Of a DNA stretch of 64,000 nucleotides, positions 30,595 to 38,518 are shown piece by piece (within the stretch, counting starts at the first letter, position 1; the number at the start of each line of letters is the position of its first letter). The position numbers and the translations under genes were made by a program. The notes under the pieces were generated by a model. It was given only the letters and a program-made list of their open reading frames with translations, did not search any database and had not been told where the DNA came from. The stretch covers positions 576,001 through 640,000 of the forward strand of contig JAHPZA010000006.1 of the NCBI GenBank assembly GCA_019058445.1, read 5' to 3'. This DNA is from Promethearchaeota archaeon. Its GTDB lineage: Archaea > Asgardarchaeota > Lokiarchaeia > Sigyniarchaeales > SOKP01.

Positions 30595-31164
30595 ATGACA
30601 AGTTTTATAGCGTGTGTAGGCTCTCTTAATCCTACAAAAGTAAATGCGGTCAAAGCTGCATTTGAAAAATATTTTACTGAATTTGAAATCTTCAACATTG
30701 AAGTGAATTCAGAGGTTCCTAATCAGCCTATTGGAATGGAATCAATTTTAAAAGAAGCAAAAATTAGAGCTGAATATGCATTAAAATACCTCATTAATGA
30801 AAAACATATAAATACAAATATTTTCGGAATTGGCATAGAAGCGGGATTAGTTAAAGTACCATTTACGAAAACAAACTATATGGATTTTCAGTTTTGTGTT
30901 ATAATAGACGAAAATGGAATCACAACCCTAGGTTCTGGAATAGCTTTTGAATATCCACAGTCAGTTATTAATGAAATTCTTTCAAACCAAGAAAATGAAA
31001 TAGGTACTATCGTAGGAAAGCTCGCAAATAACTTAAACTTGAAAAATGAAGCTGGTGCAATCAGTTTTTTAAGTAAAAATGTTATTACACGAACAGAAAT
31101 TCTAACGCAAGCTGTTATTTGTGCCTTACTACCTCGGATAAATAGGGAATTATATGAGTTATAA
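30595..31164 (+). CDS. yjjX: Non-canonical inosine/xanthosine triphosphatase
   Basis: GSLNPTK, S.VPNQP, GIEAG, GAISFLS...R. Confidence 0.88.
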   Translation: MTSFIACVGSLNPTKVNAVKAAFEKYFTEFEIFNIEVNSEVPNQPIGMESILKEAKIRAEYALKYLINEKHINTNIFGIGIEAGLVKVPFTKTNYMDFQFCVIIDENGITTLGSGIAFEYPQSVINEILSNQENEIGTIVGKLANNLNLKNEAGAISFLSKNVITRTEILTQAVICALLPRINRELYEL

Positions 31165-32043
31165 ACTCTTTAATATAGGTCTATTTTGGTTAAACGCCTC
31201 CATAATACCATCAAATCGAGCTTTTATAAATCTTTTCCATATTAATCCGATTTCCGTTAATATATAAAATATATCATTTTTCATTGCCTCAAATACAACA
31301 TCGCCTGCTTGATCGGGAGAAGTACCTTGTTCCAGTGATGTTATAAATGCTTTGATAAATTGTTCTGTTTCAGGATATTTTTTTATCATTCTTTCCAAGC
31401 ATGGTTCATAATCCGGACCACAAAATTCTGCTGGGCGATTTCTTTCGCTATTTATGATATTAGTGTTCACAAATCCAGGACAAAGAACTGAAACACTAAT
31501 CTTGCTTCCCATTCCTCCAAAACTTGCTCGTAGATTCTCAGAAAGTGCAACTACTCCATGTTTTGTGATACTATATATTCCATTTCCTGGATCTCCAGAG
31601 ACTAATCCCGCGCTGGATGCGGTATTAACAATATGACAATCATTATCTTGCTGAAGCATTATCGGTATAAAAGTTCGAATCCCATGGATTACACCCCATA
31701 AATTTACTCCCATAACCCAATTCCAATCCTTTAATGTGCACTCCCAAATAGGTCCTGGAGCAGCAACCCCGGCATTATTACATAATAAATGGACTTCTCC
31801 AAATGCGTCGATTGTTTTTTGGGCTAAATTTTCAATAGCTTCGGCTTTTGAAACATCAGTCAAAACTGAGATTACTTCTGTTCCCGATGCCTTAAATTCT
31901 TCTTCAGCTTGAATCAAAGCATCTTTTTCAATATCAGCCAATACCACTTTCATACCCTCTTTGGCAGCCCTTCTCGCTATGCCAAGTCCTATTCCGCTGG
32001 CAGCGCCGGTAATAACTGCCACCTTATTTTTAAACTCTTTCAT
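31159..32043 (-). CDS. SDR family oxidoreductase
   Basis: TGAASGIG, NNAG, YSITK, CPGFV. Confidence 0.92.
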   Translation of the reverse strand: MKEFKNKVAVITGAASGIGLGIARRAAKEGMKVVLADIEKDALIQAEEEFKASGTEVISVLTDVSKAEAIENLAQKTIDAFGEVHLLCNNAGVAAPGPIWECTLKDWNWVMGVNLWGVIHGIRTFIPIMLQQDNDCHIVNTASSAGLVSGDPGNGIYSITKHGVVALSENLRASFGGMGSKISVSVLCPGFVNTNIINSERNRPAEFCGPDYEPCLERMIKKYPETEQFIKAFITSLEQGTSPDQAGDVVFEAMKNDIFYILTEIGLIWKRFIKARFDGIMEAFNQNRPILKSL

Positions 32044-32108
32044 ATTTTTTACACTTCCTTTTTGTTATAATGTTAAATATTGTTAATAAAATATATAAAT
32101 TAAGGTCT

Positions 32109-32978
32109 TTATTCTAAAGATTTATGAATTTGCTTATTTTGCTTAAATGCTTCCATGATTTCTTCATTGCGAGTTTGTATCATTCTCCTGTAAGCCAGCC
32201 TTGTGTCGGTTAAAATATAAAAAACATCTTGTTTTATTGCCTCAAATACCATATCACCCACTCTATCAGGAACTTCTCCCTCCGCACCTAAACCACGCAT
32301 CGCGTCCCAAATTTGCTCCAATTCAGGATGATCTATAGGTACAGTAATATCATTACAAAATTCCTCTGGACGATTTCGCTCGCAATCCATAATTCTAGTT
32401 TTTACCATGCCAGGACAAAGCGCATGCATCTTAATTTTTGATTTTAAAAGGGAAAATTCCTTAGCTATGGCCTCTGTAAGACCCACAACCCCATATTTCG
32501 TGACTATATACATTCCTTGGCCAATCTCATTTGCCATTAGACCAGAAAGAGAAGCAGTATTTACAATATGGCATTCAACATCTTGTTTGAGCATGATGGG
32601 AATAAAGGTTCGAACCCCATAAATCACCCCCCATAAATTTACATCCATTATCCACTTCCAATCGGAAAGGGAACATTCCCAACTTATGCCAATTGGAGCA
32701 GTGCCCGCATTATTACATAATAGGTGGACTTCCCCGAATGTATCAATTGTTTTTTGGGCTAAATTCTCGACATCTTCGGCTTTCGAAACATCTGTCAATA
32801 CCGAAAGCACGGTTGCTCCAAGAGATTTCAATTCATTTTCAGTTTGAGCTAATGCCTCAGCCTCTATATCGGCTAAAACAACTTTCATACCTTCTCTGAC
32901 TGCTCTATTGACAATCCCACGACCTATTCCGCTAGCTGCGCCAGTTATGACAGCTACTTTATCTTTAAAATCTTTCAA
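32109..32978 (-). CDS. SDR family oxidoreductase, tandem paralog
   Basis: TGAASGIG, NNAG, YIVTK. Confidence 0.92.
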   Translation of the reverse strand: MKDFKDKVAVITGAASGIGRGIVNRAVREGMKVVLADIEAEALAQTENELKSLGATVLSVLTDVSKAEDVENLAQKTIDTFGEVHLLCNNAGTAPIGISWECSLSDWKWIMDVNLWGVIYGVRTFIPIMLKQDVECHIVNTASLSGLMANEIGQGMYIVTKYGVVGLTEAIAKEFSLLKSKIKMHALCPGMVKTRIMDCERNRPEEFCNDITVPIDHPELEQIWDAMRGLGAEGEVPDRVGDMVFEAIKQDVFYILTDTRLAYRRMIQTRNEEIMEAFKQNKQIHKSLE

Positions 32979-33089: not shown

Positions 33090-34865
33090 CTATTTATCAA
33101 GTTCTTCAAGACCAAGCTTTTCAAAATAATCAACCATATCTAAAACTGGGAATAACATTGTTGCCAGCATGTACGTTTTTTCTAAATGTCCGTTAGAGGA
33201 AGTTTTTTCCTTCAAAATTTCGTCTAATTTTGATTGAAACTCTTGTATTAGAGATTTAATTTCCTGATATTGCTTTTCAGTTAATAAACGAAAGAAAAAT
33301 GGTAATTCTTCAATATTTTCAACCCATTGAATACCTCTTGGTTTGGTTTCATAAAATTGGCCATAAAGATTTAATCTCGATGTCTCTACCATTTTAATCA
33401 ATTGTCTTGATAATAAATTGATTGTTTTGAATGTGAAAGATTTTTTTTTGTAAAATTCATATATCTCTTCAAAGGATTTCATTGATTCTAAAGTAAATTT
33501 TGAAAAATCAATTTTTTTTGTACTATAGTCTAGATCCTCACTCAATTTATAGTAATTTTTTTTGATGGTACCTGCTTGCGGCTCATCCTCCTTAACATAG
33601 GATTCGATAAGACCTAAATCAATTAAATGTCTGGTATAACGAGATAAAGTAGCTTTACTTTTATTTATTCTTTTAGCTAAATCACTCAGGCTTAATTCTT
33701 TATAAATCCTTAAAAATAATAAGATTTTCATATAGAATTCATTATCGAGAACTTCTGAAAAAGAATTAAACATCATACTACGTAATATCCTGCGGCTCAA
33801 TGAAGCAAAAATTTCATCTACGTTATGACCAGTATTAGCAGAACTATATATATGACTAAATAATTGATGTTTTTTAGCTAGATTCATAGCCTCCTTATTT
33901 GAAATAGCTCTTTTTTCTAGGTCTGTTTTATTACCGACCATTAAAATAGGGACTTCTATATTTCCTCTAACATTTCTAAATTCTTGAATCCATTTATTCA
34001 TATTCTTAATGCTTAAATCATTAGTTAAATCATACATAAAAATACCTCCAGAAGCTCCCCTCATATAATAATATCTAATAGATTTAAATCGATCATCAGC
34101 AGAAATATCCCAAATTTGTAAAGTGATCTTTTTTCCATCTACATCTAAATCTTTTTTAAAAAAATCTACACCGCTTTCCGTTTTTTTAATTTCGGATTTA
34201 GGGTCTTTAGATACAAAATTAGTAACTATTGAAGATTTCCCTACACCCTTATCTCCAAATAAGCAAATCTTAAGTAGTAATTTCTTAGTAATTGTTGAAC
34301 ATATGCCAACTAATAATTGAAAAATTTTATCGAGTTCTTTTTTAAATTCTTCTGTATCTTTTATTGAGGTCTCAATATATTGAGTAATCCCCTCCTTTTT
34401 AGCAAATTTAATAAATTTATTTCTATCTATGTCTTTATTTTCTTTAACTAAATCGATTTTGTTACCAATTAATATAAAAGGGCCATCAATCTCAGCATTC
34501 GTTCGAATTAAATTGAGATATTTTTTAATATATTTCAAAGTTTTTGGTTTTGTAAGGTCAAAAATGAAAATTGCGGCATTAGCACCCTTACAATATTTTT
34601 TATGAACAAACTCGAATTTTTCATCATCAAAAAAAACCCAAAAATGAAATATGTATTCTTCTTTGTTAATCATTAATTTATGTCGAAGGAAATCAACTCC
34701 GATTATATCTCTTATGTCTTCTCCACCTTTCATAAATGGATTGGTGAATGTTGTTTTGCCAACCCCTGACGCTCCAACTACTAAAATTTTAAAACTACCT
34801 TCAGCCATTATTTTATCTTTGATTTTTTTCAATTTAATTTTATTTAAGATCACTTTAATTTTCAC
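33090..34865 (-). CDS. Tandem Rab-like GTPase domains fused to a C-terminal winged-helix (ArsR/MarR-like) domain
   Basis: GASGVGKT...NKID; GDKGVGKS...NKTD...SAN; LSLSDLAKRINKSKATLSRYTRHLIDLGLI HTH. Confidence 0.85.
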   Translation of the reverse strand: MKIKVILNKIKLKKIKDKIMAEGSFKILVVGASGVGKTTFTNPFMKGGEDIRDIIGVDFLRHKLMINKEEYIFHFWVFFDDEKFEFVHKKYCKGANAAIFIFDLTKPKTLKYIKKYLNLIRTNAEIDGPFILIGNKIDLVKENKDIDRNKFIKFAKKEGITQYIETSIKDTEEFKKELDKIFQLLVGICSTITKKLLLKICLFGDKGVGKSSIVTNFVSKDPKSEIKKTESGVDFFKKDLDVDGKKITLQIWDISADDRFKSIRYYYMRGASGGIFMYDLTNDLSIKNMNKWIQEFRNVRGNIEVPILMVGNKTDLEKRAISNKEAMNLAKKHQLFSHIYSSANTGHNVDEIFASLSRRILRSMMFNSFSEVLDNEFYMKILLFLRIYKELSLSDLAKRINKSKATLSRYTRHLIDLGLIESYVKEDEPQAGTIKKNYYKLSEDLDYSTKKIDFSKFTLESMKSFEEIYEFYKKKSFTFKTINLLSRQLIKMVETSRLNLYGQFYETKPRGIQWVENIEELPFFFRLLTEKQYQEIKSLIQEFQSKLDEILKEKTSSNGHLEKTYMLATMLFPVLDMVDYFEKLGLEELDK

Positions 34866-34930
34866 ATATTAAGAATTTATACAACAGAACTTTTTGAAAA
34901 TTTTAATATTTTTTTTTATTATATTATATT

Positions 34931-35341
34931 CTATACGAGCAATGCGATTTTTTCGCATATTTTTCTACAGTTAAGAAAAATTAGACCAATATTCGCATTT
35001 TTATTGGTAGAAATCATTAAAACTGCATTTTGACCAACTGTTAAAACAAGGAGATTGCGATCGGAACCTTGTATATAAACCTGTTCCAAATCACCCGCAC
35101 GCATTTGTAAAGAAGCTTTCTCAGCCGTACATAAAATTGATGCTGTTAAAGCTGCTAATTGTGTTTCATCAACGTCATGTGGAAGTGCTGAAGCTATTGG
35201 TAATCCTTCTTGGGATAAAATTGTTGCCGCTCTCACTTCAGGTATGATATGTAATAGTTCTTTTAAAATTTTCCGGAGTGATTTCAGATATGATTCTTTT
35301 TCGTCTTCTTTCTCTTCTTTTATTAATTTAAATGTCGAAAT
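34931..35341 (-). CDS. Roadblock/LC7 (MglB-like) protein; N-terminal helix lies upstream of GTG 35236, probable ATT start
   Basis: ILSQEGLPIASALP..LAALTA..LEQVYIQG..NIGLIF. Confidence 0.88.
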   Translation of the reverse strand: MSTFKLIKEEKEDEKESYLKSLRKILKELLHIIPEVRAATILSQEGLPIASALPHDVDETQLAALTASILCTAEKASLQMRAGDLEQVYIQGSDRNLLVLTVGQNAVLMISTNKNANIGLIFLNCRKICEKIALLV

Positions 35342-35411
35342 AATAAATCACCATTGATTTTTTTTAAAATTTATTTCAATCAAATTTTCAAAAAAAAATT
35401 TTTTATATTGA

Positions 35412-35606
35412 TTAAATTACTCCGCTTACCAAAATTGGTTTCTTTTTGTCTGAATTGGAATTATCAAAGCATTCAATGTGATAATATAAGGTATTATCTT
35501 TTCCCTCAACATATTTCCCATCTTTTAATTCACCATAGCTTATCTGGTAAACCTTGTCTAAATCTTCTTGCTTAATTTTTAATCCACACACATTACATCT
35601 AACCAT
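35412..35606 (-). CDS. Small zinc-finger protein (CxxC...HxxC)
   Basis: CNVC and YYHIEC; GGTGA SD. Confidence 0.75.
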   Translation of the reverse strand: MVRCNVCGLKIKQEDLDKVYQISYGELKDGKYVEGKDNTLYYHIECFDNSNSDKKKPILVSGVI

Positions 35607-35635
35607 TTTATTTTTTCACCTCTATTAGATTTTTA

Positions 35636-35857
35636 TTACAATCCTCTCCCTTTTAAGAATAAAAGAGTAGAAGAAAATTTGGCACTAGGAGGATTTAGGA
35701 TGAATGATTTTCCTTTCGTATAAGAAAAAAGGACCAATTTTACTAATTCATCAAAGTATCCTTTTTTTCTTTCTTTTTTTACCCCCTTAAGTTTTTCACT
35801 CATTACTCTTTCATTTTTCTCTTCTTGTTGTGTTTGTTTCTTAAATTCAATTGTCAT
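35636..35857 (-). CDS. Small hypothetical protein
   Basis: GAGGTGA SD; tight spacing within the operon. Confidence 0.6.
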   Translation of the reverse strand: MTIEFKKQTQQEEKNERVMSEKLKGVKKERKKGYFDELVKLVLFSYTKGKSFILNPPSAKFSSTLLFLKGRGL

Positions 35858-35904
35858 ACTTTCAGATCACCTCTTAATGAATTTTTTTTACAGTTTATCA
35901 CTTT

Positions 35905-36105
35905 TTAATAAATATCGTTAAATTGGGAGGTATTGCTTAGATCTAAAACTTCCGAATTCTCTTTCAATCGCTCATAAAATCTCAATAGTTTTTCGAATTT
36001 GGCTATTAGCTCATTGTAATAGTCCTGATCGGCATATTTCCTTTTTTTAAGTTCTTTTGCCTGTGTTATATCTCTTTTATATCTCTGTATTTTTTGATCA
36101 AGCAA
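35905..36105 (-). CDS. 66-aa helical protein, copy A
   Basis: GAGGTGA SD; near-identical to 38039-38239. Confidence 0.8.
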   Translation of the reverse strand: MLDQKIQRYKRDITQAKELKKRKYADQDYYNELIAKFEKLLRFYERLKENSEVLDLSNTSQFNDIY

Positions 36106-36314
36106 TTTTAATCACCTCACATTTTTTTTACTTTTTTTTCAAATTATTTCAACTTATGATTATTATGCAATGTTTCATATTTAAATATTTCGCAACGTTG
36201 CATAAATCATATTTTATGAAACAATAAACTTTTATTTTGGATTAATATTGGTTTTACCCTCTTTCTCTCCAAGATTTCCAAATCCTATTTTTAAAACTCA
36301 AATTTGAGTTTGTC

Positions 36315-36875
36315 TTAATCGGGGGATAAATCCGCTATTGTGTATCGAATTAAATCTATCGTTTTAAAATGTTCAGTAAATAACTGTTCTTTGCTTATAG
36401 TAGCATCTAATGATAATGTTAAAAAGAAATCAGAGCCGCAATCAACTACAAGCAATTTTCCCTTATCACCTTGAATAAATACTATATTTAAACTTCCCTT
36501 TTTATATTCTCTACAAGCCCGTTCACTTAAAGATAATACCGCTGCCGTCATGGCTGCAACTTTAGTATCATCAGATCCTTCTGGGAGAATACTACTTATT
36601 GGTATACCTTGACTATTAATTAAAGCAACTGCGAGCACACCCTCAATCTTCATTATCATTTTTAGCAATAATGTGACATTTAAAATCTTATTGGTAATTC
36701 TATAAATTTTATATCTATCAATAAACAATCCAGTTTCCTCAATTAAGCCCTTTTCTTTTAATCTATTAATAGTAGTCCTTATTTTAGGTTCCTCTATACC
36801 TGTTTTTTCGCTTAATTGGGAAGTTGTAAGTGGTTGGTTTTTCAATTCTCGCATAATTTGTTGTCCTATTGTCAT
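36315..36875 (-). CDS. wHTH-roadblock/LC7 fusion protein
   Basis: PLTTSQLSEKTGI...INRLKEKGLI; INSQGIPISSILP..VAAMTA. Confidence 0.85.
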   Translation of the reverse strand: MTIGQQIMRELKNQPLTTSQLSEKTGIEEPKIRTTINRLKEKGLIEETGLFIDRYKIYRITNKILNVTLLLKMIMKIEGVLAVALINSQGIPISSILPEGSDDTKVAAMTAAVLSLSERACREYKKGSLNIVFIQGDKGKLLVVDCGSDFFLTLSLDATISKEQLFTEHFKTIDLIRYTIADLSPD

Positions 36876-37051
36876 TCGAATAATAGATCACCTTTTTTCA
36901 TAAATAACAAATCTATTATTTATAAACCAAATTAATTATTTAAATGTTATGTTAATGTTATACTAAGCAAAAATGAATATTTAAAGATGTTATATAAAAC
37001 CTAATTATGTTAAAAAAATTATTATGATTGATAGAGCTTTTTTGATTATCA

Positions 37052-37951
37052 TTATTTCTCTGCCTCATCATCTCTTAATTTGAATTTTTCCATAATTTTT
37101 TCCATTTTTTCTGAGATGATTTTCTCAATTTTCGTTTCTAAAGTATCTTGAACTTTCTCAGATTTTCCATAATTTTTGCGATATTCTCTGACAGCATCCC
37201 GAATCATTTGAGACATGGATTTATTCAATACATCCCTAGCAAAAATTTCCCATTCATTTTTTAATTCTTCCGTTAGCGTTAAATTAATTCTTGCTGTTTT
37301 TGTTGGTTTTGTATCTTCGAGATAGAGCTTGGTTCGTTGGACACATTCCATAAAGGCTTCGTAAACATTTTTTTGCTTGTCATACAGGCCAATTGTTTCA
37401 AAAATAATAGGATTCCATGTGTATGATGGATCCTCTGAATCAAAGATTAAGCCTTCATCTTTTAAAATTTGCTCAACTTCAGATTTATTAACCGTTTCTG
37501 ATAAATCCTGTTTATTTAACATAATGGTAAGCGGAATTTTTTTGACCAATTTACCCTTAGAAATTTCTTGAAGTTCTTTTAAACTTTCTATATTTTCAGT
37601 TACTCGAGATTTTTGTGAATCAAAAACAAAAATGACGCCATCAGTTCCGCGAAATACTTTTTTTCTTATAGTAACAAAACTTTTTACACCTGTAACCGTA
37701 TATATCTGGTAAAAAACTTTATCTATTTTTGGAAGTTCCTCTAAAAAATCAGTAAAAACAACTCTGTCGAAATATAAAGTTGTTCCGCTCGCTCTCTTTA
37801 TACTGGTCATATCACCAACTGGAATGATATCTTTATTTTTATCTTTAGTTAGTTTATGAAGTGTATCGAGAATTGTAGTCATACCGGCTTGATGTGGACC
37901 CCAATAAACAATCTTTATATATACTTTATTATCTGATGTCCATCGAACCAT
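37052..37951 (-). CDS. MglA-like GTPase with degenerate P-loop, fused to a ribbon-helix-helix domain
   Basis: KIVYWGPHQAGMTT, TTLYFD, GTDGVIFVFDSQ, NKQDL; RINLTLTEELKNEW..SMSQMIRDAVREY. Confidence 0.82.
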   Translation of the reverse strand: MVRWTSDNKVYIKIVYWGPHQAGMTTILDTLHKLTKDKNKDIIPVGDMTSIKRASGTTLYFDRVVFTDFLEELPKIDKVFYQIYTVTGVKSFVTIRKKVFRGTDGVIFVFDSQKSRVTENIESLKELQEISKGKLVKKIPLTIMLNKQDLSETVNKSEVEQILKDEGLIFDSEDPSYTWNPIIFETIGLYDKQKNVYEAFMECVQRTKLYLEDTKPTKTARINLTLTEELKNEWEIFARDVLNKSMSQMIRDAVREYRKNYGKSEKVQDTLETKIEKIISEKMEKIMEKFKLRDDEAEK

Positions 37952-38029
37952 TGAATTTACTCTTGGAAATTTGATTAATTAACCTTTATTAAATAAAAAT
38001 TAAAATTAATTCTATTTTTTTTAATATTC

Positions 38030-38305
38030 TATCACTTTTTAATAAATGTCGTTAAATTGGGAGGTATTGCTTTGATCCAAAGCTTCCGAACTCTCTTTTA
38101 ATCGTTCGTAGAATCTCAATAGTTTTTCGAATTTAGCTATTAGCCCATTGTAATAATCTTGATATGCATATTTCTTTTTTTTAAGTTCCTTTGCATATGC
38201 TATATCTCTTTTATATCTCTCTATTTTTTGATCGAGCAATTCTATTCACCTCCCAATTTTTTTTTTTCCTTTTTTTTCAAATTATTTCGATTTAAGATTA
38301 TTATT
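38030..38305. repeat. ~270-bp direct duplication of 35896-36165 (66-aa gene plus SD and upstream sequence)
   Basis: Shared tatcactttttaataaat..cgttaaattgggaggtattgctt...tttttttcaaattatttc. Confidence 0.85.
38039..38239 (-). CDS. 66-aa helical protein, copy B
   Basis: GGAGGTGA SD; near-identical to 35905-36105. Confidence 0.8.
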   Translation of the reverse strand: MLDQKIERYKRDIAYAKELKKKKYAYQDYYNGLIAKFEKLLRFYERLKESSEALDQSNTSQFNDIY

Positions 38306-38369
38306 ACATAAGTTATATATAAATTTTACGTAAAAATTACATAAAAGTAACATAAAAATTGCATATTTA
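38304..38369. promoter_or_regulatory. Phased 11-bp direct repeats (TTACATA-like), putative RHH operator
   Basis: ttacgtaaaaa ttacataaaag taacataaaaa ttgcatattta at 38326-38369, plus ttacata 22 bp upstream. Confidence 0.45.
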
Positions 38370-38518
38370 TAGAAAAAAATATCTTAATATCATTCTCACT
38401 TCAAAATTGCATATTTCTTAACCTGAAGTGATTTAAAATATCTCTAAAAGTGAAAAGAATACTATTTTATATTCTAATAATTTTATATCTAGTATTAAAA
38501 AAATGAAGATGGTATATT

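Follow-up and report, generated by a model that had tools for sequence, protein, structure and literature searches.

Small-GTPase-like and roadblock domains joined to predicted repressor domains in Lokiarchaeia, with a candidate promoter box for each family

Introduction

The usual interpretation of Asgard small GTPases and roadblock proteins is that they foreshadow eukaryotic membrane trafficking and Rag/Ragulator signalling. Among repressors, NikR consists of a ribbon-helix-helix (RHH) domain and a sensor domain, Csa3 of a CARF domain and a winged helix-turn-helix (wHTH), CodY is a GTP-sensing wHTH repressor, and Phr and ArsR/SmtB are likewise wHTH proteins. Here we present a computational analysis of a gene cluster of a Lokiarchaeia genome (assembly GCA_019058445.1), in which domains of the former kind are joined to predicted DNA-binding domains of the latter. 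The cluster lies in a stretch of 64,000 nucleotides (nt), termed the window (contig JAHPZA010000006.1, positions 576,001 to 640,000), and comprises eight open reading frames (ORFs) at 33090-38239, all of them on the minus strand. An initial annotation, made from the sequence alone, had read these eight genes as a single GTPase-roadblock circuit acting through transcription factors, and all eight are present at the coordinates first given to them.

A connection between prokaryotic GTPases and gene expression has been drawn before. In the conservons and related G protein systems (CvnA-D, Mfp), a Ras-like GTPase and a roadblock protein regulate gene expression by a route that is indirect and unknown (PMC13343842, PMC13621833, PMC8510531), while Wuichet and Sogaard-Andersen (2014) connected Group 3 MglA of bacteria with a protein encoded nearby that has a receiver domain (REC) and a wHTH, and proposed a role in transcription (PMC4316618). 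For the Asgard archaeon Prometheoarchaeum MK-D1, Tran et al. (2024) described multi-domain GTPases with roadblock, longin and '?' domains and found that GTPase genes generally lie outside operons with roadblock genes (PMC10933270), and a survey of Asgard eukaryotic signature proteins (ESPs) reported patchy, shuffled and lineage-specific architectures (bioRxiv 10.1101/2020.10.19.343400). No description of GTPase-RHH, Ras-wHTH or wHTH-roadblock regulators was found in the literature, in keeping with the suggestion of the initial annotation that the system is possibly undescribed.

We assign a probability of about 60% to the reading that, in this genus, three probably autoregulated repressors of the one-component type, each with its own promoter and with a GTPase-like or roadblock module, have come to lie side by side.

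Results

The main new result is a set of three types of candidate operator box, each of which appears to be tied to one DNA-binding family. Promoter B (38304..38414, minus strand), upstream of the gene B for a 66-amino-acid (aa) protein and of the GTPase-RHH gene, contains four TAYGTAA/TTACGTAA boxes with a period of about 11 nt around the TATA-like TTTATATATAA (38304-38343), as well as an exact ATATGCAATTTT repeat that occurs twice, at 38355-38366 and 38403-38414. It is the sole dense TAYGTAA cluster in the window. TAYGTAA boxes around a TATA, with a position upstream of a GTPase-RHH gene, were observed at five loci (the window, L004, L001, L038 and L002), including one without the 66-aa gene (L001) and one where the promoter is joined straight to the GTPase gene (L038). 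The boxes are kept down to 45% protein identity in the GC-rich genome of L002, and the variant TACATAA is seen in G089.

Promoter C (36904..36993, minus strand), upstream of the wHTH-roadblock gene, holds ATAACAT-N4-ATAACAT abutting TTTAAATA (36944-36961), an extra TATAACAT at 36988-36993 and an inverted TGTTAT at 36904-36909; the exact double ATAACAT box is present once in the window. The window, L039 and L007 share the 26-nt element ATATAACAT-N3-CATAACATTTAAATA in nearly the same form; L007 has 50% protein identity, and outside the element its spacer is unalignable. Each of the 18 wHTH-roadblock upstream regions, taken from three subfamilies, carries two to six ATAACA boxes, and their total of 62 compares with 8.5 +/- 2.8 in shuffled sequence and with 0.28 per 170 nt in the intergenic DNA of the window.

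Promoter A (36166..36202, minus strand), upstream of the 66-aa gene A, shows AACGTTGCG (inside the palindrome GCAACGTTGC) and AACATTGCA on either side of the TATA-like TTTAAATAT, and all three matches to AACRTTGCR in the window fall within 36166-36202. An unbiased 6-mer scan of the regions upstream of Ras-wHTH genes gave CGTTGC, CGTTAC and AACGTT as top words, with CGTTGC observed 11 times against 0.3 expected. The AACRTTRC box-TATA-box arrangement recurs at stand-alone Ras-wHTH genes of other genera, and a cassette of the gene A type with the same arrangement drives the roadblock and Ras-wHTH genes in the window and in the same-genus genome G083. Boxes of this type were not found at ten stand-alone homologues of the 66-aa gene.

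Since the box-TATA-box promoter of each family is kept in distant orthologues, this conservation argues for sequence-specific, autoregulated repressors. A perfect 9-bp hairpin (AAACTCAAA/TTTGAGTTT; 36295..36312, minus strand), followed by a run of T directly 3' of the wHTH-roadblock stop, is likely the end of the first transcription unit, and it suggests that the locus is split into two or three units, the second being headed by the 66-aa gene A (35905..36105, minus strand).

The wHTH-roadblock gene (36315..36875, minus strand) encodes 186 aa, with the wHTH at aa 1-62 and the roadblock/LC7 domain at aa 69-186. Its Pfam matches are HTH_5 (29.3 bits), TrmB (29.1 bits) and Robl_LC7 (55.6 bits, cut-off 23). 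No residue of the recognition helix IRTTINRLKEK varies within the family, and this helix and the wing RYKIY are its most conserved columns. The ESM Atlas contains an unnamed archaeal cluster of 53 proteins composed of wHTH and roadblock domains.

The Ras-Ras-wHTH gene (33090..34865, minus strand) is a 591-aa ORF, although the protein probably starts at Met20 (ATG 34808), as in its orthologues. Along the minus strand it comprises Ras-like domain 1 (34296-34796), Ras-like domain 2 (33783-34271), a Phr/ArsR-like wHTH (33531-33752) and a long helical C-terminal region (33093-33530). The Ras family scores 215.6 bits over two stretches, and residues 380-423 match MarR (24.8 bits), HTH_IclR (24.7) and HTH_5 (24.7), each slightly above its cut-off. 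The wHTH was modelled at a predicted local distance difference test (pLDDT) of 76-89 and superposes on CadC, SmtB, CzrA and HlyU at 1.3-2.0 A over about 78 residues; the best overall structural match, over 190 columns, is Phr, an archaeal heat-shock regulator with a wHTH and long helices. Among the wHTH sequences of the locus there is also a match to Csa3/CasR. The most conserved columns of the Ras-wHTH family are KSKATxSRxTR and the wing IKRKYYKLS. The C-terminal 160 residues form long helices at low model confidence with faint matches to DUF4423. Two metagenomic proteins of 507 aa, P0145 and P0146, have an N-terminal single repeat of the TATA-binding protein (TBP; PF00352, 70 bits) ahead of the Ras domain, wHTH and helical region, so that a basal-transcription-factor fold is joined to a GTPase.

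The GTPase-RHH gene (37052..37951, minus strand) encodes 299 aa, namely an MglA-like G domain (aa 1-215; 37307-37951), an RHH (aa 218-262; 37166-37300) and a C-terminal helix (aa 271-297; 37061-37141), all on the minus strand. Pfam gives Arf at 51 bits and Ras at 30 bits. The G domain has a confident predicted fold, for which the top 14 Foldseek matches in the PDB are MglA structures (template modelling score 0.79-0.85, 23-26% identity), and one homologue carries the name MglA at its source. Against an RHH_1 cut-off of 20.5 bits, the whole protein scores 16.3 and the isolated tail 20.2, and the full length of the RHH_1 model is matched by two relatives of the tail, L013 (20.3 bits) and L023 (21.5 bits). 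In 13 orthologues of 286-322 aa the tail motif RINLTLPExLKxEWExFA...SLSQMIRDAVREY is almost invariant, most of all in SxSQMIRDAVRE, and is laid out as the usual strand, helix, S-x-S loop and helix. CopG regulators rank first in the PDB for the tail profile (E 0.012), NikR is a weak match, and an Arc-like PHROG matches at E 0.005. The monomer model, the only form that was folded, contains helices 228-242 and 246-261 and a long C-terminal helix, with the strand segment 216-225 at pLDDT below 50.

The domain calls of the initial annotation thus largely hold: Rab-Rab-wHTH, roadblock and wHTH-roadblock are above the Pfam cut-offs, and MglA-like-RHH, in spite of its borderline Pfam score, is supported by the MglA fold, the orthologue motif, the CopG match, the RHH_1 scores of relatives and the helices of the monomer model. 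Its statement that two GTPase genes and one roadblock gene carry a DNA-binding domain is also upheld, and the fusions recur in other Lokiarchaeia.

Elsewhere the RHH module occurs alone (proteins of about 100 aa), with PCI/wHTH, with HisKA-REC and in an MglA-like-RHH-Ras arrangement, a distribution that, as judged from sequence, is the pattern of a portable output domain. In G063, G037 and G080, proteins of about 280-300 aa (L026, L027 and L033) contain a receiver domain and a HisKA-like segment in addition to the module and are response regulators with an RHH output. In a chain of about 620 aa, seen in G007 (L010/L055) and in P0199, the RHH module is combined with both an MglA-like and a Ras domain. 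In two GC-rich lineages (L002:7481-7987 and L055), the gene directly ahead of GTPase-RHH, which overlaps its start, is conserved, encodes 168 aa and belongs to no known family; a hidden roadblock or longin was considered for it and rejected, the profile comparison giving a probability of 0.3%.

Eukaryotic GTPase regulators include winged helices joined to longin or roadblock domains, and on this model the wHTH and RHH parts could be protein-protein modules comparable to those of NPRL2/3, ESCRT-II, DEP and PCI, placed in ordinary GTPase-regulator complexes off DNA. The joining of some RHH-module relatives to PCI-like domains would agree with such a role. However, the sequence and fold matches are to families of DNA-binding repressors (ArsR/SmtB, MarR, TrmB, Csa3, Phr, CopG and Arc), the recognition helices of both wHTH families are basic and invariant, the repeated promoter boxes are family-specific and conserved, and the TBP-repeat and REC fusions point to transcription, so that a purely scaffolding function is very improbable. 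Three DNA-binding repressors are more readily reconciled with the RHH and wHTH-helical modules that stand alone or on other domains (RHH-HisKA-REC, RHH-PCI, TBP-Ras-wHTH), as expected of output domains.

With reference to the nucleotide-binding motifs, G4 (NKxD) is present in all three G domains of the locus (GNKIDL, GNKTDL and LNKQDL), and G1 in both Ras-like domains (GASGVGKT and GDKGVGKS). The 299-aa protein has GPHQAGMTT as its P-loop, in which Met replaces the Lys of GxxxxGK[ST]; this Met is confined to the window genome and its nearest relative, most orthologues having GK[TS] and two (P0087 and P0102) GKAK. Its G3, TVTGV, is without the Gln that the short 229-aa paralogues keep in the MglA-type TVAGQ, and the catalytic Gln is missing from all 13 RHH-bearing orthologues. 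In comparison with TIGVEF and WDTAGQERF of Rab, G2/G3 read IIGVDF and WVFFDDEKF in Ras-like domain 1 and ESGVDF and WDISADDRF in domain 2, and both domains are devoid of the switch-I Thr, the switch-II Gly and the catalytic Gln, the switch-I Thr being retained in G083 and in distant homologues. With their switch and catalytic residues gone, the G domains look like sensor or pseudo-GTPase modules, and it is unlikely that in the present form they work as classical GTP/GDP switches served by a roadblock as GTPase-activating protein. Purifying selection is nonetheless evident, with ratios of nonsynonymous to synonymous substitution rates (dN/dS) of 0.26-0.41 for the MglA-like and both Ras-like G domains and of 0.09-0.41 over all domains of the cluster proteins.

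Conservation was counted across 121 genomes sampled from the order. The RHH module with any partner is present in 45 of these, the wHTH-helical module of the large protein in 20, full-length wHTH-roadblock in 15 (and in none of the six sampled genomes of the same genus) and a true MglA-like domain with RHH in three; an exhaustive profile search of 1.84 billion representatives returned the full layout of the latter in about five clusters. The source names of the homologues are Lokiarchaeia or Promethearchaeota. All three fusion architectures recur in Lokiarchaeia, and the cluster as a whole is not conserved.

The gene orders reflect the same. The same-genus genome G083 has ATP-grasp, 66-aa, roadblock and single-Ras-wHTH genes, and it is the only one to keep the order 66-aa, roadblock, Ras-wHTH; L039 has ATP-grasp, wHTH-roadblock and 66-aa genes; L004 a 66-aa gene, GTPase-RHH and a short-chain dehydrogenase (SDR); L038 GTPase-RHH and a 66-aa gene; L001 GTPase-RHH, a 66-aa remnant and Ras-wHTH; and L002 the 168-aa gene and GTPase-RHH, together with a roadblock whose HTH differs and is of the transposase type. 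The closest relatives hold differing subsets of the modules, and the 66-aa cassette appears to mark the joints of a shuffled module set.

These data bear directly on a strict form of the proposal of the initial annotation, in which the eight genes form one system whose DNA-binding domains are assembled or released by obligate complexes of the MglA-MglB or Rag-Ragulator kind. It can be argued in its favour that the 299-aa protein has an MglA-like fold and that a roadblock gene comes directly after GTPase-RHH here; in the distant L002 the roadblock neighbour has a different HTH, which implies an independent fusion. In addition, a roadblock directly precedes Ras-wHTH here and in G083, L001 has Ras-wHTH next after GTPase-RHH, and in L010/L055 and P0199 a Ras domain is part of the GTPase-RHH chain itself. 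Scattered adjacency (L002, G083) together with one Rosetta-stone fusion (L010/L055) hints at a possible pairing of GTPase and roadblock, and a functional link is possible. On the other hand, the components are mostly found alone: 19 of the 21 wHTH-helical loci have no roadblock gene within 1.5 kb (four of these are also without a Ras domain), and the wHTH-roadblock gene is monocistronic on all three long contigs and in other genomes never shares a contig with GTPase-RHH. Only subsets occur in the closest relatives, every RHH-bearing orthologue is without the catalytic Gln, and in this genome Met stands in place of the P-loop Lys and the ATG of the plain roadblock gene is lost. The prediction of a complex between the G domain of the 299-aa protein (1-215) and a dimer of the 186-aa roadblock domain scored 0.01, which counts neither way on binding. 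An obligate circuit of eight genes is hence regarded as unlikely; the synteny speaks against one conserved system and the G domains lack switch and catalytic residues, while the fusions, the conserved DNA-binding parts and the promoter boxes remain of the earlier idea.

Among the other genes, the plain roadblock/LC7 gene (34931..35341, minus strand) has 136 codons, and Robl_LC7 scores 54.0 bits (cut-off 23) on the 101-aa ORF as called. Its ancestral start lies 35 codons 5' of the called GTG, at an ATT (35341-35339) for which G083 has ATG; the GGTGAT Shine-Dalgarno (SD) sequence is unchanged 5 nt upstream of the ATT (35339-35352), and the 34 codons upstream of the GTG stay open. The 66-aa gene B (38039..38239, minus strand; TTG start, SD GGAGGTGA) encodes a helical small protein of which gene A is a duplicate. 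This is a true duplication, extending over about 330 nt with the SD and about 90 nt of upstream promoter sequence at 87%/80% identity; the differences between the copies are mostly synonymous (dN/dS 0.15), and the family is present in 66 of the 121 genomes. A role as ATP-grasp substrate or precursor of a ribosomally synthesised and post-translationally modified peptide was considered because of the ATP-grasp gene found ahead of it in the window and in G083/L039, but was set aside as other genera have DUF1028-TPR instead. The stand-alone homologues L043-L052 follow a DUF1028-TPR gene and share a conserved promoter, ATAATACCGTGATATTTTTGTGTTTTAAATA, that does not resemble those of the cassettes in the window.

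The remaining two ORFs, both with a GAGGTGA SD, lie within a stretch of about 530 nt that G083 lacks. The 73-aa ORF (35636..35857, minus strand) had been annotated as a gene; the ORF is present, but it is an orphan with no homologue in the 120 other genomes, and its status as a gene is unsupported. The 64-aa CxxC-x35-HxxC protein (35412..35606, minus strand), a putative zinc ribbon, had been labelled a Zn finger; it belongs to a real small CxxC...HxxC family found in 52 of the 121 genomes, elsewhere on other contigs, whereas its zf-PARP match is faint (17 bits). A second copy is located at G000:C6:1045946-1046113 in the window genome. Atlas look-ups yielded nothing of use for either the 66-aa or the 64-aa protein.

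Several of these features could be taken as signs that the cluster of the window genome is a remnant losing function, namely the P-loop Met limited to this genome and its nearest relative, the ATT start, the switch-I Thr lost from both Ras-like domains here and kept in G083 and distant homologues, the degenerate G2/G3 motifs and the insertion with an orphan ORF. Decay is nevertheless highly improbable, for all frames are intact and under purifying selection at dN/dS 0.12-0.33, with 0.18 in comparison with G083 for the 34 codons that follow the ATT, the loss of the G3 Gln is family-wide in the RHH-bearing clade and not a local lesion, and a diverged relative from another study spans all parts of the cluster. 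The latter was met in read set X4, of which a low-depth joint that skips 34830-35597 is not interpretable; read set X1 is probably the sample of origin, and X2 and X3, of the same study, contain fragments identical to the cluster.

The host genome measures 4.6 Mb at about 30% G+C and has 17 roadblock-domain genes. The flanks of the cluster are housekeeping genes (a RimK-type ATP-grasp, SDRs and an NTPase), with two tandem SDR paralogues immediately downstream at 31159-32978. The orthologous loci L001 and L004 are likewise flanked by SDR and NTPase_I-T genes, which places the GTPase genes within a conserved housekeeping neighbourhood. A defence island or mobile element was rejected as an explanation, since PADLOC and PHROGs give only similarity of the wHTH and Arc type and the flanks are housekeeping.

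Discussion

Overall, the locus is best explained, in our view, by three repressors in each of which the sensor or dimerisation module would be a small-GTPase-like or roadblock domain: an MglA-like G domain with RHH, a wHTH with roadblock, and Ras-Ras with a Phr/ArsR-like wHTH and a helical dimerisation region. Each protein would bind repeated boxes (TAYGTAA, ATAACA and AACRTTRC, respectively) that flank or overlap its own TATA, and thereby compete with TBP and transcription factor B (TFB). As catalytic and switch residues are lost while G1 and G4 are kept, except for the P-loop Met here, the G domains may act as sensors of nucleotide occupancy or as fixed docking modules instead of timed switches. 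The genes were presumably assembled by module shuffling around the duplicated 66-aa gene and its promoter cassette, and contact of the G domains with both roadblock proteins, a plausible step, would couple the regulators. We infer DNA binding to the boxes, autoregulation, nucleotide sensing and coupling.

A number of observations weigh against this explanation. The RHH profile scores are borderline, and in the monomer model the strand is disordered and the tail has a pLDDT of 46-69. A box of the promoter A type in L038 precedes a 66-aa gene that is not followed by Ras-wHTH. The enrichments come from kin sequences in very AT-rich DNA, and the counts overstate independence; moreover, the boxes adjoin the TATA and the TFB-recognition element, which are conserved in themselves, and another factor could bind them. 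Finally, the recurrent adjacency or fusion of GTPase, roadblock and Ras genes (L001, L002, G083 and L010/L055) hints at a coupling that goes beyond independent regulators.

The locus joins GTPase and roadblock domains to classical prokaryotic repressor domains in three recurrent architectures, and a conserved candidate operator accompanies each of them. This suggests that part of the "eukaryote-like" GTPase machinery of Asgard archaea may control genes and not membranes. If the proteins bind DNA, part of the Asgard GTPase expansion would serve gene regulation, which changes the reading of ESP counts, and a simple in vitro route to what an Asgard G domain senses would be at hand, as the proteins are small and the predicted sites are defined to a few bases. 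A more far-reaching idea, which we offer as speculative and rather doubtful, is that a subset of the Asgard small-GTPase and roadblock repertoire consists of guanine-nucleotide-sensing transcription factors, in which the occupancy of the G domain, read or set by DNA-binding roadblock dimers, decides whether RHH or wHTH domains occupy TATA boxes. If true, prokaryotes would have a counterpart of Rag/Ragulator signalling to transcription factors that acts on DNA directly, and part of the "membrane-trafficking" ESP set would be mis-assigned.

In comparison with known systems, the 299-aa protein shares with MglA of the MglA/MglB pair (Myxococcus xanthus, Thermus thermophilus) the fold of its G domain, and a gene of the roadblock/MglB type follows it; it differs by its RHH tail, by the missing catalytic Gln of the RHH orthologues and by the P-loop Met, and the neighbouring roadblock carries a wHTH, no polarity or motility gene is linked and the pairing is not conserved. 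The actinobacterial conservons likewise employ a prokaryotic Ras-like GTPase and a roadblock protein, whereas the locus fuses DNA-binding domains directly to GTPase and roadblock domains, and neither a histidine-kinase-like CvnA nor a DUF742/CvnC-type partner is found among the eight locus proteins. Group 3 MglA resembles the locus in the linkage of an MglA-family GTPase to a predicted wHTH, which there resides on a separate nearby receiver-like protein, while in the present locus the GTPase or roadblock protein itself bears the RHH or wHTH. The catalogued Asgard GTPases and roadblock proteins (PMC10933270; bioRxiv 10.1101/2020.10.19.343400) are of the same superfamilies and the same phylum, but are given a membrane-signalling reading, and DNA-binding fusions are not described there.

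There is also a likeness in domain logic to the one-component repressors NikR, Phr, ArsR/SmtB, Csa3 and CodY, in which a DNA-binding domain is joined to a sensing or dimerising domain and the operators overlap the own promoter, as the candidate boxes do here. A G domain or roadblock as the sensor of such a repressor was not found described in the literature, and it is in this module, a Ras-superfamily G domain or a roadblock, that the proteins of the locus depart from them.

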